A stretch of DNA of 64,000 nucleotides from Mytilus trossulus (lineage: Eukaryota), in assembly GCF_036588685.1 (NCBI RefSeq), contig NC_086374.1, forward strand, positions 13,888,001 through 13,952,000, read 5' to 3'. This document shows positions 55,811 to 62,964 of this stretch, in pieces. A model generated the notes under the pieces. It was not told the DNA's origin and made no database searches. It saw only the letters and a list, made by a program, of their open reading frames with translations. Numbering within the stretch: position 1 is the first letter of the stretch; each line of letters opens with the position of its first letter. The position numbers and the translations under genes are program-made.

Positions 55811-57068
55811 TCAGTAAGAAAGGGGTAGTTATTTTCGAGTTGTACTAGTAGGTGTCCCTCCAGTTTGAAACTACGAACTCCCGTCGGTAGTCCGTACTTC
55901 ATTTGAATCACATGTGCCAAAGGTTATAGAAAACAAAAAAACTGCAAACTGTACGTGTATTCTTTGTTGTTAATTTGTATGATATTCAAGATTATTGAAT
56001 TGTTCTTGTAATATTTGTTCAAATCGATGTTTGGTGTTTAATTTGTATAACGTTCAAGATTTGTGAAAAAAATAACAATAGTTGATGTAACCATTTAACA
56101 TCAGGCTAATACTGTATTTGTAGATACTAATTGCATTTTAATTTTCGAATTATTGTTTATATACCACGGTTTAGATGTTACGGTACACTTATTAGACGTG
56201 TATACAACGAATCTCTTCATATATGAGAATGTCTGCAAGATTCACCAGTTATGGTTGATAATCGCTCGAAAGGTGTAACCCGAATGTTAAATAGTATTTG
56301 TTTTTCTGTCATTGACCTACTAGTATACAGAATATATCGTAGTCCATGTATAACTATAAATGTAATATTTACTGGGCAGTTTAATTAAAGGTTGGGCTCA
56401 TGTCATATATCATGGGGCGATTCCAGGTTTAAAGGGTAACCCGTTTTTGTTGTGTAGAAAAACATACGTATAAAACTTCGTATATGTTTTCCAAGCATTT
56501 GTGGGAAATCTCATCATGTCAGCTGTTGTAAGAATTTTCTAACGTGATCCCTTCTGTATCCATTTAAATTGCGAAATTTTCGAACTGCAATCAAATCAAA
56601 ACAGAAAAGATACTGAAAAAATAAAGATTAGCCATTATGTACATATACCAAGGGGAAACTTCATGCACAGCATGAATATTCATCGTTTCATTTCATTTTT
56701 TTTAGAAAATGGGATTTTCTGGCAAAAAAACCTCACAATATTTTCTTCTTTAATACAGATTTTGTTGCTCACTTGTTTATTCTGTGATTTGCTGGGTTTA
56801 TGGTTCACAAAACGTCATAAGCAGCCTTTAAAATCTCAAAATATCGTGCCAAGTCAGCAAAAGGTATACTTGAAATGACCCATAATTTTATTTGATTTAA
56901 CGAACATCTTGATTTATGAACTTGCAATGCATGCAATTATCCTTTAATTATCAAGCATTGAATTACATTAAATGCGTGTTATTTGGATTTGTTCAGCTCA
57001 AAATCATTATGCAGCTATGGGTGAACGCCTGTTGTATGGAAAATTGAACTAAAACAAATAATGAATAA

Positions 57069-57595
57069 TTAAGGTTCATCATAACAAATGGACAAATATG
57101 GCCGTATTTTTACCTCAAAAACTACTCTGTGTACAGACTCACCTGTGCTGTTTGAAAAGTTTTAATGCCTAGCATCCACTAGATATATAAAAGTTAAATG
57201 CATTTTGTGTTTAAGAAAGATAAAATCTTTCTTGGTTTTTGCTGGGCATTTTTTTCCTTTCTTCAGAAGGTGCAAAAATAAACAAACACCTGCATTACTT
57301 TGATACTGTCCACTCACTGACTCAGATAAACTCTTTAACTCACCTATAGTTGTAAAGATACCTGGTGTCTATGGTCAATTAAGGACAATGAAAACAATAC
57401 AAACCGGTTTTTTTGCCCATCAAAATCCAAAAGAGATTTTATCTTTCTGAAACACAAAATGGATTTTTTTTTTTTTTATATCTACTGGATGCTAGGCATT
57501 AAAACTTTTCATACTTTACAGGTAAGTCTGTACTCAGAGTAATTTTTGGCATGTAAATACAGCCATATTTGTCCGTTTGTTATGATGAACCTTAA
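57069..57595. mobile_element. Second, inverted copy of the 37312 TTAA MITE with an internal deletion
   Basis: Same TIRs and TTAA flanks; internal sequence is the reverse complement. Confidence 0.92.
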
Positions 57596-57624
57596 ACAAA
57601 TTTTGTTTCTGTTCAAAGCATATT

Positions 57625-58140
57625 ATTTCGGAAGAATAAAAATAGGTTCCTACAGACTTGTAGCTACTTGTTGCTGTCGGGTAATCAAACAGGAATGAGT
57701 CGTTTGATTTTCCGGCTATTATTTTCAAGAATGAAATCGCCACCTTTCTCTCTAAGATTCGTTTTCAACAATAACGCAAGAACTTCAGGCGGATATTATG
57801 TCCGAACAAACCAATCTATTGCAAATGTCTTATAAAAAGGCAAATCGAGACCAAAGAAAGAGTGGCGCAAATTTTACTTTTGCTTTTTGAATAGCAGAGG
57901 ACTACTGCCATGTATATGGAGTGCTAAACAGTAGTATACTGTTTCCGACATTGAACTAAAGTTTGGATTTTGGACACCCTCCAACCATTGAAAATGGTCA
58001 ATTGCAGACACTAGACCTTTCTTGTGAAGCTGTTCTTAGCAATACGTTGTGAGTAGCTTCTGGGCCATAGCAAACATAAAAATTTGTAGGATTTACCAGT
58101 TTTTGTGATGACTTAAAAAAAAATGAAACAACATTACCAT
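57625..58140 (-). pseudogene. Diverged second copy of the 'GGDFILE' exon
   Basis: Aligns with 59210-59680 (shared 'ttcaagaatgaaatcgccacctt', 'cgcaagaacttcaggcgga', 'attgcagacact'); translates to 'KFAPLF...GGDFILENNSRK...LQVCRNL'. Confidence 0.8.
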
Positions 58141-58389
58141 CTATCAAGTGTAACATAAATTATCTATAAAATATGAACAAAACTAATTGAAAATTAAAAC
58201 GTTTTGCGTCATTCACTTTTAGTATTATCCTTACTGATGTTCTTTATCAATTATATCGAAAAGAGTATATGTAACAATAAAAGTAAAAGCATGTTTGAAA
58301 AGACTAGTTTCAATATTCATATGTCACACCACCCTTAAAACAAAAATAAATATCTTTTCTATTATAAATCATATTCGACTTGTAATTGT

Positions 58390-61300
58390 AAGAAATGTTA
58401 GAAAATCAGCTTTCGTCTTTCGTTTGATCTTTGTCAATTTTTTTTTTTAATATTTGTCACCCATTGATTTCAGTTTTCGTTTTATTTGATACAGCTTCGT
58501 CATTTGGTCGATCATCAGGCAATACAAAAACCAGTTCATACTTCTTCTTAGTGCTTAGTGGAATATCATGCAACCACAAAAAGTATTATCGCCGATGTTC
58601 ATTGGCGTTTTTTCAGACATGTTGATGAAATTGTTGACGAGGTCATTTCCACTTATTGACTTTAGAGTTGGTTGCTAAGAATTTAGAATTTTTGATAAAA
58701 GTTCGAACGTTTGAAATTTCTCTATTAATGTTATAAGCAAACATAATTTTCATTCGCAGAAGCCAAGCAAATTGGACAGCGAGAAAATTCACCTTGAAAT
58801 CATATTCTTATGTCGTTTTAAGGAAAGTATAATGTTCCGCAGTTACAAAAAATATCGTTCAATTTCTCAGAACACTTGCAATGAAGAAGTCGCCTTCTTC
58901 GTTCCCGAACACACAATGTATCAAAAATGATTTGACAAGGACAAAACAGACACATTGACCCATGATGTCGGCCCACAGTCTACACAATGTTTCATCTCCG
59001 ACTGTAACGACATAAGTGATGATTGCAATATTTGCAATGAGTTGAAATTAGACCAGCGTAATATTTTAGTTGGATGCAGATCAAAATCCCCATGTAGCTA
59101 CTGGGTGCACGCCCGTTGTATGGGGATTTGTGCCTGAATAAAAACATCATTATAAAAAAAAATCTATCCAAAGCATATTGGTTCGGAAGACGAAATATCA
59201 TATTATTACATTATCGAGCCTGTCCCGTTCCTTTAGACTTGAAACCACTTGTTGATGTCGGTTAATTCAGCGGGAATGGATTTCCGGCTATAAACTTCAA
59301 GAATGAAATCGCCACCTTCTCCCTTAGATCATATAAGATCCGTTATAAACAATACACGCAAGAACTTCAGGCGGACACTGTACCCGTACGTACAAACCAA
59401 TCTCTTACAGATGTCTCCATGTAAAAAGGCATATCGAGGCCTAAGAGAGAGAGACGAAAATTTCATTTTGTTGTTTGAATCGCAGCGGTATTATTTCGCC
59501 TGACCCCTACCCTGAATATATGGAGTGCCAAACAGTAGGTAAATGCTATTTTCGACATTACACTATAAATTGGATTTTGGACACCGAAAACCACTGAAAG
59601 TAGCCTATTGCAGACACTGGACCTTTCTTTTCAGCTGTTCTTTGCAATATATTTCACAATATTACCATCTAACATGTGAAACATAAATTATATATAGAAT
59701 ATTTACACAATTTTTTTTTTAGTGTAAAACGTTTTACGTCATGCACTTTTTCTATTTAAATATATTTTTAAAAAAATATTTCCTTTTGCATTTTTATTTT
59801 TCTGTGTAAAATTGAAATTTAAAAGGAAAAACACCCTACCATTTGTAAAAGTTAATTTTCAATTTTCTAAAAGTTGGATTAAAACTGGTAAGTAACTTTT
59901 GATGTTAAACTATTTATTTCAATAAAATACATACTAGTAGCATCTTGACACGCTTGTAGAGCTTTAATGGATACAAATCCTAACATCTTTGCTAGGTCTA
60001 TGAGCGGCATCCCACAGCATTTTGAATAAAGCTTTGACCATATATATTTCATAATGACCTGGTCATGCAACAGGGAAAGAAACCCACTTAACTTTCAAAA
60101 TGAAATAAGAAGGTGTTGTATGAATGTCAATGAAACCAAATTCATCCAAGACAAAATGCAGTTTAAGTAAGCCATTAGAGGTTACAATCTTCAATGTGAT
60201 GTCTTTGCAAACGTCGAACAGTTACATAATTAAAACTTAACAGGAAGTAAAAAGGTATTGTTGTACTTTCAGCAGTTTTCAACTAGAGTCATTTGACAAT
60301 GATCTCTTTCTTTTATATGCTCTAGGAACGCTTCCTCTTCCTCAAATTTCATTTCACAATCATAAAAAACTATGTGATTGTCACTGACTTCGTTCCCTAT
60401 TGTGTAATGCAGAGCGTCGCCAAGAATTGTCCATTTTGTGTTTGATAGTGTCAAATTTTCAATGTGTTATAATACATAAAATACAAATTTGAAGGTAATT
60501 TAATGTATACTATTCATTTTCTTGCATTTAAACTGTTTTATTTGGGAAATATAATTAGGAAAGAGTGATAAACGAAGTATTAACTATCTGTACGTACCAT
60601 TTCGACATATTCACAAGAACATGGTCTCTCAAAGCACGGGTCTCCCATTTTCACTTGGATATTTCATCTGGATGGCCACTAGTTACAAAGTTGAACCATA
60701 TATATATAATGGCACACATTAAATAATGATATCAGTGGCGGATTCAGAAATTATCAAACGTGGGGACCCACTGACTGCCTTAGAGGAGGCTCCTTCAGTC
60801 ATTAATTCCAACTTAAAAAAAAAAACACTCTACGTTTACCTCAACATCCAACATCCAAAAAATGATTTAATATCCAAAATACTATAATCGGACGATATAT
60901 ATACCTATCATGTGGGTTGCAATCTTATCCATGTTCCCATCTTCAATTGCTAATCCATCACACATAACTTTAAGTTGCTCTTCTACAAACTGGTTTCTGA
61001 AGATATTACTATAACATTTTTTTCTTAATATATATATATAAGTCTACAAGTCTACTTTTAAAGGAGAATAATGTATCTAACCTAACAATAACTACATGGT
61101 TCAGCGAACAAGCTAGCTAACCAAAGATATGTGAAAGTAATCGTAAAAGAAATGAATTGAAACCATTTAAAAAAAAAATACTTATTGGTATGAATTGTAG
61201 CCAGTTCATTTGTTGATGATGAATACAAAATACTTCCTTCATTAAAGTGCACTCCAACTTTTAATTTGTCAAATAATGACGATACATATCTATTCATTAA

Positions 61301-62964
61301 TAAGACATTATTACCGAAACTTGCAAAAAGCCACATCCTCTTGTTGAAATATGGCTAAAATATCGCCTATATGGCTTTATTCTTTGAAGTCTGGTCAAAC
61401 TTCAACCAGTTTCTTGGAGTGAATTTATCTTTAAATTGTAACACAATATTTGGATTTGGCATGACGTGGATGCTGTTGGTTATTACGCTGTTTTCCGATT
61501 TAAAATTAGTTACAACTCATCACTTTCTCTGTAATACCTGTAAAACAAGTATACAGTATAAGTTTGCATACATTCTAAAAAGTAAAATCACAAAAATACT
61601 GAACTCAGAGGAAAATCAATTTGGAAAGTCCATAATCACATGGCAAAATCAAAAAAACAAAACGCATCAAAATGGAATGGACAAGAACTGTCATATTCCT
61701 GACTTGGTACAGGCATTTTCAAATGTAGAAAATGGTGGATTAAACCTGGTTCTATAGCTCTAACCCTCTCAATTACACATACTTTGATATTGTTATGCAG
61801 ACGAGTGTTATATATTTTCAACTTTGTTTACTATACTAATTACCAAATTAATAATGTAGTCAATGAAATATTAATCCACTGTAGACAACAGGTGACTGTA
61901 TATGGATTATAAATTTGTTAATTATAAGAACTACCTGATTGTTGTCAAAGAGAGTAATAACGTCTATTTCTTCAGGGCACTGCAAAGCTTCCTTGCTATA
62001 TTATTTGATCCAGTTAGTAACTGTGGTATAGCTGCCAGATGGACGACCAACCGAATTTAGATTAACTGCTGTTTTGCTGCCAGTGGTGTAGTATGTCAAC
62101 AAAGATTGAACTACACCAAGAGACAAAATGAACACAGAATTCCTCAAGTAATAAATGGCATCTATACATCTGGCTGTGTACAGGGCAGTGTTGTTTTAAG
62201 CTGGGTTGTCGTCAATTATTCTATTTCAAAAAATGTTGTTGACCCAATTTCTGCAACACACATACTCTTAATAGGATATTGAAAAAACCAAAATATACCA
62301 TCACCATTATTGAAAAGGGAAACAATTTGCATCATTGGATTTAATTCTCAGCCATTAGACTTGTGTTTTAATGTTATACCTCTGTCCCAGCTTAAGGGGG
62401 GTGTTGGGATCCCGCTAACATGTTTAAACCGGTCACATTCTGTATGTATGTGCCACGCCTAAGTCAGGAGCTTAAATAGGGCCGGTATGTTTCTAGTTTG
62501 AATTGTTCGACATTGTCATGTCGGGACCTTTTATAGCTGACTATGTGGTATGACCTTTTTTCATTGATGAAGGCCGTACAGTGACATGAAGTAAGTTGAT
62601 AATTTCTGTGTTATTTCTGTCTCTTGTGGAGAGTTGTCTCATTGGCAATTATACCACATCTTTTTTTTTTAAATTATGAGAATCTTTATTTACAATAGTT
62701 CAAATATACAAGAACATTGATTTCATCCTATCATAATCATAAGTACTCATAACCTAACTGTAACGATGAAAGATTCCAGGTATTCATCATCGTTAAATTT
62801 TCCAGCGATATTATCTGAATCCTCGTAAATGACTCTGCTTTGGTATATCCCTATTGCTGTGACAAGTTGTTGCTGTTCAATAGAGCATTCACCCCTTTTA
62901 AAAGTGAAATAACTGCTTGCACCGCTTCTTCTGACAAATCACTCTTGTTTATTTTTTTGGTAAA
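58390..62964 (-). pseudogene. Decayed multi-exon DDE transposase-like gene (Academ/DUF6589-like)
   Basis: Ordered minus-strand segments: 'PSGSYTTVTNWI...DVITLFDNNQ' | GT-AG intron | 'VLQRK**VVTNFKSENSVIT'; 'MGDPCFERP'; 'WTILGDALHYTIG'; 'PGHYEIYMVKALFKMLW..LAKMLGF'; 'GVRRNN...KGEGGDFILE'; 'LKSISGNDL'. Confidence 0.7.
58955..59137 (+). pseudogene. PHD-finger-like fragment
   Basis: 'CNIC...ILVGC....CSYWVHARCMGI' fits C4HC3 spacing, truncated by a stop. Confidence 0.7.

Follow-up and report, generated by a model that had tools for sequence, protein, structure and literature searches.

A dead copy of a two-gene cut-and-paste transposon, probably from a third Academ lineage, in the genome of Mytilus trossulus

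In a 64,000-nt stretch of Mytilus trossulus DNA (positions 13,888,001 to 13,952,000 of NC_086374.1, contig C2 in our numbering; the whole stretch is called the window), an initial annotation proposed a hidden, intron-containing DDE transposase-like gene with zinc fingers. The locus raises the question of whether so broken a gene belongs to a mobile element and, if it does, to which group of elements. Relatives were sought in the 1.3-Gb genome. We conclude that the window very probably holds a dead, 5′-truncated and partly duplicated copy of a two-gene cut-and-paste transposon, whose family has CAG...CTG ends, duplicates 5 bp of target and likely forms a third lineage of the Academ superfamily. 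The copy keeps the exon structure of a decayed transposase gene, the right terminal inverted repeat (TIR) and part of an interleaved antisense gene for a MADS box and a PHD finger, and its relatives are dispersed through the genome. The antisense PHD exon, a tandem duplicate and the right TIR were missing from the initial annotation.

The decayed transposase gene

Base-level comparison with a sibling copy resolved nine decayed transposase exons on the minus strand at 62960-58350. The sibling, at 33.36 Mb of the same contig, is collinear and 77–85% identical across all nine exons. In tblastn searches with intact homologues, the main exon pieces were matched in order on the minus strand (E 1e-37 to 6e-4), with exon 1 giving a weak match to P0009 (E = 0.16). 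These two comparisons confirm the consistent order of minus-strand segments described initially. The gaps between segments are introns, because a relative in the same genome reads across the junctions as one open reading frame (ORF).

Exon 1 survives as a 3′ remnant (62758..62960, 84% to the sibling); its 5′ part and the left TIR are missing and its donor has changed from GT to TT. Position 62964, initially taken for the exon start, is really the junction with a dispersed repeat (63117-62963). Exon 2 (61935..62266) ends in FDNNQ, carries the first catalytic Asp (61946-61944) and has one in-frame stop. The following intron (61538..61934), which contains a dispersed repeat at about 61775-61577, is phase 0 with GT-AG borders and joins FDNNQ to VLQRK exactly as had been claimed. 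Two adjacent stops interrupt exon 3 (61315..61537), which begins VLQRK. Exon 4 (60905..60996) was defined by the sibling comparison, while exons 2, 3, 5 and 9 were defined by both tblastn and the sibling. Exon 5 (60598..60696), with a MGDPC..PCS motif, has lost its acceptor and carries a frameshift. The second catalytic Asp (60418-60416) lies in exon 6 (60241..60475), together with a C2H2-like insert (zf-C2H2_2 E = 0.005, below the Pfam cut-off); both splice sites of this exon are lost. Exon 7 (59935..60064) contains GHYE, with the His at 60056-60054, a lost acceptor and a 2-nt deletion. Exon 8 (about 59649-59210) contains GGDFILE with the catalytic Glu (59298-59296); its first ~85 nt are deleted and it has stops and frameshifts. 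The transposase C-terminus is encoded by exon 9 (58350..58792, the 58350 end being approximate). All of these features lie on the minus strand.

Canonical splice sites, which had been noted for several segments, are kept at 10 of 16 positions. The six lost are the exon 1 donor, the exon 5 acceptor, the exon 6 acceptor and donor, the exon 7 acceptor and the exon 8 acceptor, the last deleted with about 85 nt that included the DHHKSW motif. In-frame stops occur in exons 2, 3, 6, 8 and 9, and more than 10 frame-breaking indels separate the window copy from the sibling, some of which may be the sibling's own. Four catalytic-motif residues survive: the two Asp, the His of GHYE and the Glu. A Pfam search of 12 raw window fragments, several of them out of frame, gave no match above cut-off. 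With its stops, frameshifts, lost splice sites and missing 5′ end, the window copy is a dead fossil.

The segment at 57599..58220 (minus strand), inside the span of the initial annotation, is no further exon but repeats the intron 7/exon 8 region in tandem (74% to 59649-59227, 76% to the sibling). It retains the HHK.W motif deleted from the first copy. The whole duplicate spans 58220-56969 and includes a second PHD-exon remnant (56969..57040, plus strand, 79–84% to sibling PHD exons). It is split by an unrelated insertion resembling a miniature inverted-repeat transposable element (MITE) at 57069..57595, to which no strand was assigned. The inverted arms of this insertion are about 180 bp long and 85% alike, and relatives of it are present at other fetched loci.

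The transposase belongs to a large family, for which a profile search returned 3,041 clusters at E ≤ 0.001. In an alignment of 100 proteins, counting the rows with a residue at each site, the first Asp is conserved in 74/77, the second Asp in 99/99, the His of G.GH.E in 98/98, a later Asp in 93/93 and the Glu in 91/92. The homologues share a D/D/H/H/D/E pattern, which we call invariant. An insert of 49–75 amino acids is present in 80 of 97 aligned rows, 45 of them with a strict C2H2 pattern, and absent from 17. The C2H2-like insert reported after the second Asp is thus real, but it is general in the family and no mark of a lineage. The same must be said of intron richness, since this genome also contains close relatives that are intron-poor or intronless. 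When the genome was searched at the protein level, 88 of 112 candidates were matches, and these included intact, multi-copy ORFs of about 1,000–1,140 codons. Intact ORFs of the family lie, for instance, at C3:56996321, C7:46377875 and C10:14915330. A metagenome scan with P0028 found two contigs of 1.2–1.3 kb, too short to show ends or a partner gene.

A structure model was built for P0005, an intact oyster homologue, rather than for the broken window copy. It had a predicted local distance difference test (pLDDT) score of 94 and placed the catalytic residues on strand 1, after strand 4 and on a helix behind a large insertion. The best of its VIA matches was the P element (Z 9.4, 324 residues aligned, root-mean-square deviation 5.7), with Hermes at Z 9.3 and integrase cores at Z 8–9. 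A search of PDB sequences with the family profile gave 13 weak, unrelated matches. The transposase is modelled as an RNase H-fold DDE enzyme, in which one Asp is predicted on strand 1 and the other after strand 4, with an insertion made up of a zinc finger and helices and with the Glu on the next helix. Conservation of D/D/E and the match of the homologue model to DDE folds bear out the transposase assignment first made for this locus.

Element ends, target duplication and dispersal

Walking outward from intact ORFs, we found that elements of the family end 5′-CAG...CTG-3′. An exact 5-bp target duplication flanks 19 of the 20 elements with both ends read, a count made up of 16 of 17 in a scripted table and three of three read by eye from the same output; at two further loci one end was read. 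Within the window's own subfamily, one 2.5-kb deletion derivative retains both TIRs and is flanked by a duplicated TTCAA.

The window copy itself has a decayed right TIR (56385..56528, plus strand), the terminal C of which is changed or lost. This TIR was recognized by way of young 1.76-kb non-autonomous elements with 750-bp TIRs, to which the 3′ flank of the nearest sibling had pointed. It is identical at 110 of 157 positions to the TIR of the young non-autonomous relative and scores 61.7 bits, compared with at most 34.6 in 30 shuffles. The terminus of the young elements also matches two siblings, C1d at its right end and C1a at its left. With the TIR motif of a sister clade, no end was found near the window copy. 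Inverted repeats that flank C1d and a second C1a element were rejected as TIRs, being common repeats.

Could the window nevertheless contain a pseudogene left by an intron-rich gene that the host had domesticated? The eight introns and the annotation of homologues as host proteins would fit such an origin, as would the higher identity to the sibling in exons (82% over 2,125 aligned bases) than in introns (74% over 2,001). Against it stand at least 14 dispersed sibling loci, each seen solely as broken pieces and with unrelated flanks, the TIR shared by the window and siblings, and the derivative of the same subfamily bounded by TIRs and a target duplication. We consider a host gene extremely improbable and already largely refuted. 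The family is a class II TIR transposon, for which TIRs, target duplications and dispersed copies were all found, and the expectation of a multi-copy element rather than a single-copy host gene has held.

Two non-autonomous families share the CAG ends and 5-bp duplications, namely ~440-bp MITEs and the young 1.76-kb elements. At the other extreme are giant members of 36.6, 39.8 and 39.3 kb (C7:46377875, C8:60711876 and C5:71876283), which have CAG TIRs and 5-bp duplications and are about 98% alike; other members measure 21–25 kb. The giant copy that was listed has just three stop-free frames of at least 110 codons; for TIR elements with so little coding content, these members are very large.

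The antisense MADS-PHD gene

The last exon of an antisense partner gene lies inside the last transposase intron (58878..59191, plus strand). It encodes a PHD-like finger ending C..H and is broken near its end. The exon matches P0175 at 61% (E = 5e-27) and the Pfam PHD model at E = 0.011, below cut-off. Of 14 sibling loci fetched, 10 have a PHD exon in the corresponding antisense position. Searching with this exon returned eight proteins, two of which, both annotated Mytilus proteins, contain a MADS box (PF00319) above cut-off (29.9 and 34.3 bits; cut-off 26). P0178 maps at 93–100% onto three antisense exons in a relative of 5,955 bp with TIRs at its borders (C9:77775626-77781580). There, MADS-PHD exon 1 lies beyond the transposase stop, and exons 2 and 3 lie in the intron that follows the Glu exon. 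This interleaved layout is also found in the nearest sibling. The two domains are predicted to act in DNA binding (MADS) and chromatin reading (PHD). For P0181 there was no PDB match at E ≤ 0.1, and a single-sequence model of it, with pLDDT 40, was not used.

Two unusual arrangements of the PHD exon were seen. In a sibling on C7 (C7:39343001-39353000) the PHD region is tandemly triplicated beside a broken tyrosine-recombinase-like fragment, presumably Crypton-like, which abuts the MADS exon. In P0180, an annotated Mytilus edulis protein, the PHD exon is fused between unrelated sequences, possibly through a gene-model artefact or exon capture.

The MADS-PHD gene might be captured cargo with no role in transposition. 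Several copies and all of the MITEs are without it, other sub-clades have a second gene in a different orientation, and the partner role is putative. However, the nested position is kept between elements whose transposases are about 40% identical. The PHD frame also appears to be under constraint over short, motif-centred stretches: the ratio of nonsynonymous to synonymous substitution (dN/dS) was 0.22–0.35 between the window and two siblings (43 codons) and 0.12–0.20 in deep pairs of the sister clade. In addition, six more distant sub-families keep a second ORF just downstream, on the same strand instead, and one of them gives a weak MADS lead (Atlas 0.76). We therefore judge the cargo explanation improbable. 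As a further lead, families a, c and d have a Tudor-like ORF, with sub-threshold matches in two of the three (E 0.03–0.11).

For a two-gene cut-and-paste element, the transposase would bind the TIRs, excise the element and join it to AT-rich targets with a 5-bp stagger, and it would also mobilize the ~440-bp, ~1.76-kb and 2.5-kb non-autonomous derivatives. The part of the MADS-PHD protein is the least certain. It may be an accessory factor that binds DNA, reads a histone mark and either steers insertion or controls transcription of the transposase, and it may take the place held by a helicase and a nuclease, the latter presumably of XPG type, in the two other Academ lineages.

Several observations weigh against the interpretation given here. 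The VIA Z of 9 for the transposase model is just modestly above background, and Foldseek gave no match to it at E ≤ 0.001, RAG1 being first at E = 0.017. The 20 kb upstream of the window copy yielded no left TIR, and hence there is no target duplication for this copy itself; one sibling with both ends, the old intron-rich sibling on C10, has no duplication. Both MADS exons are gone from the window copy. The PHD finger is below the Pfam cut-off in all eight proteins (best 23.7 against 24), and this genome and Mytilus protein records are the only places where the MADS-PHD partner was seen. The dN/dS values come from 43–57 codons picked around the motif, and a 36-codon transposase stretch gave 0.6–1.5. 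The accessory role of the partner is putative. Finally, in the tree described below, the branch that sets the family on one side has a support of only 50, and the tree came with long-branch warnings.

Comparison with Academ and RAG-type elements

The initial annotation placed the transposase near Academ and DUF6589-type enzymes. We compared the family with control elements from the same genome, DUF6589-positive ones for AcademH and, for AcademX, elements picked with a motif that we take to be characteristic of that group; their identification as Academ references relies on ends, target duplication and helicase. The family profile matched AcademX cores at E 2e-12 to 1e-7 for three of four fragments and AcademH cores more weakly, at E 4e-4 to 0.06 (both at Z=1000), with the G.H.E and D...E.N motifs in register. 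Atlas structures gave TM 0.65–0.67, by query, to DUF6589 clusters. DUF6589 itself had weak matches in 13 of 25 members at E ≤ 0.01 (best 4e-13), with P0001 and P0003 below cut-off. The transposase is homologous to Academ cores, and the family probably belongs to the Academ superfamily in the broad sense.

Kinship with Academ therefore stands at the level of a homologous core, but by ends, duplication and partner gene the family is neither AcademH nor AcademX. The AcademH controls had TAG ends, a 10-bp duplication (one exact, one 9/10) and a DEAD/Helicase_C gene; the AcademX controls had TAG ends and a 3-bp duplication in both copies. These lengths fit those given in the consulted part of PMC10045372 (9–10 bp for AcademH, 3–4 bp for AcademX), where duplication length within Academ is linked to the partner enzyme, helicase or nuclease, respectively. 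Helicase, nuclease and PHD genes had been named as partners to look for. The PHD partner was found, but there was no helicase ORF in the 5,955-bp TIR-to-TIR relative or in the ORF lists of families a, b, c and g, and no nuclease-domain Pfam match in 25 homologues. Intact ORFs stop about 200 amino acids after the catalytic Glu. In a quick tree of 64 rows, with no outgroup and identical rows merged, the AcademX and AcademH branches measured 3.8 and 4.2 changes per column; P0039, P0051 and an e-clade ORF were lost from it at motif cutting. The lineage is distinct from AcademH and AcademX and is set apart by its CAG ends, 5-bp duplication and MADS-PHD partner, not by the zinc-finger insert or the introns; it is likely a third branch of the superfamily. 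In the AcademH families h, i and j, the transposase is also followed directly by a third ORF, about 250 codons long, whose TDSKG and DGIHP words may point to an SGNH hydrolase.

No description of this lineage was found in the literature searched; Repbase, Dfam and key Academ literature lie outside that search, and for this reason 'undescribed' is provisional. The family may already be catalogued, as RepeatMasker class Academ-2 or another Repbase family, with only its description missing from the literature examined. Repeat curators may have met it, since it is large and has young copies; the label Academ-2 is applied to oyster insertions (10.64898/2026.02.10.705023) and to a fungus (PMC12411881), undefined in the consulted parts of both, and the weak DUF6589 matches also fit. 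On the other side, the Academ lineages treated in the consulted part of PMC10045372 have 3–4 or 9–10 bp duplications. In a curated bivalve library (PMC10294476, supplement file 24), 90 of 100 Academ entries begin TAG, none begins CAG and no entry bears the label Academ-2. Supplement files 24 and 25 contained none of four short TIR words over the first ~400 letters of each consensus, the extent covered in this library. We regard prior cataloguing as unlikely, although with a real chance.

If the lineage holds, a third state of 5 bp and a non-enzymatic MADS-PHD partner would be a natural test of the link between duplication length and partner enzyme. The joining of a MADS box to a chromatin-reader finger on a transposon would represent a new module for targeting or self-regulation, and its mechanism is testable because young, near-identical relatives with intact ORFs exist in the same genome. 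In mussel annotation, transposon MADS boxes may also give rise to spurious 'MADS-box genes', a name that P0181 carries.

Among known systems, AcademX (Academ-1), which is common in bivalves according to the consulted part of PMC10294476, resembles the family in a homologous catalytic half, motifs in register and TIR-element form. It differs in its TAG ends and 3-bp duplication (3–4 bp and a nuclease in PMC10045372), whereas members of the family have CAG ends, duplicate 5 bp, lack a nuclease extension and encode MADS-PHD in a gene of its own. AcademH (DUF6589/PF20231-type) shares a similar predicted fold, a weak sequence match and a second gene on the opposite strand, and differs by TAG ends, 10 bp and a helicase gene, in contrast to CAG ends, 5 bp and no helicase in the elements inspected.

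Shared descent with the RAG1-RAG2 transposon and the Transib/Chapaev group would account for the 5-bp duplication, also reported for Transib in the consulted part of PMC8355894, for a zinc domain and for a convergent PHD gene. RAG1_imp_bd gave matches in two intact relatives (28.3 and 23.1 bits against a cut-off of 23.3), P0175 matches RAG2_PHD best, although below threshold (E 1.6e-4), and RAG1 heads the Foldseek list. Yet the 100-sequence profile has no PDB sequence match to RAG1 or Transib at E ≤ 10, the VIA Z for RAG1 is 5–6, below those of the P element and Hermes, and the transposase core aligns with Academ. Transib termini are CAC, and those of the family are CAG; its partner has a MADS box and no Kelch repeats; and the RAG1-like N-terminus and the PHD partner occur in different sub-clades. 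A RAG1 family search of the genome gave no match and is uninformative because its control matched nowhere either. Common descent is thus very unlikely. The relatives that begin with the RAG1-like, Chapa-type zinc domain (PF12560) are L039:8311-9999 and L043:7846-9999 (23.1 and 28.3 bits), and a crude motif for the domain occurs in 10 of 37 long homologues. As the Chapa domain is known solely from the Transib/Chapaev group in the consulted part of PMC4411706, its presence here is an extension.

Compared with RAG1L-RAG2L, TransibSU and Chapaev as described in that part of PMC4411706, the family is alike in its 5-bp duplication, in the RAG1-like N-terminal zinc domain of some relatives and in a second gene ending PHD-like. 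It differs in having a MADS-PHD instead of a Kelch-PHD partner, interleaved genes, CAG ends and a core without detectable sequence similarity. We tentatively propose, as quite possible, that the family is an undescribed, still mobile third animal Academ lineage (CAG, 5 bp) that pairs its transposase with a MADS-box and histone-reader protein: antisense MADS-PHD in the window's clade and possibly MADS-Tudor in giant 21–40 kb relatives with the RAG1-like zinc domain. It would then parallel, independently, the RAG1-RAG2 arrangement, in which a DDE enzyme is paired with a chromatin reader.

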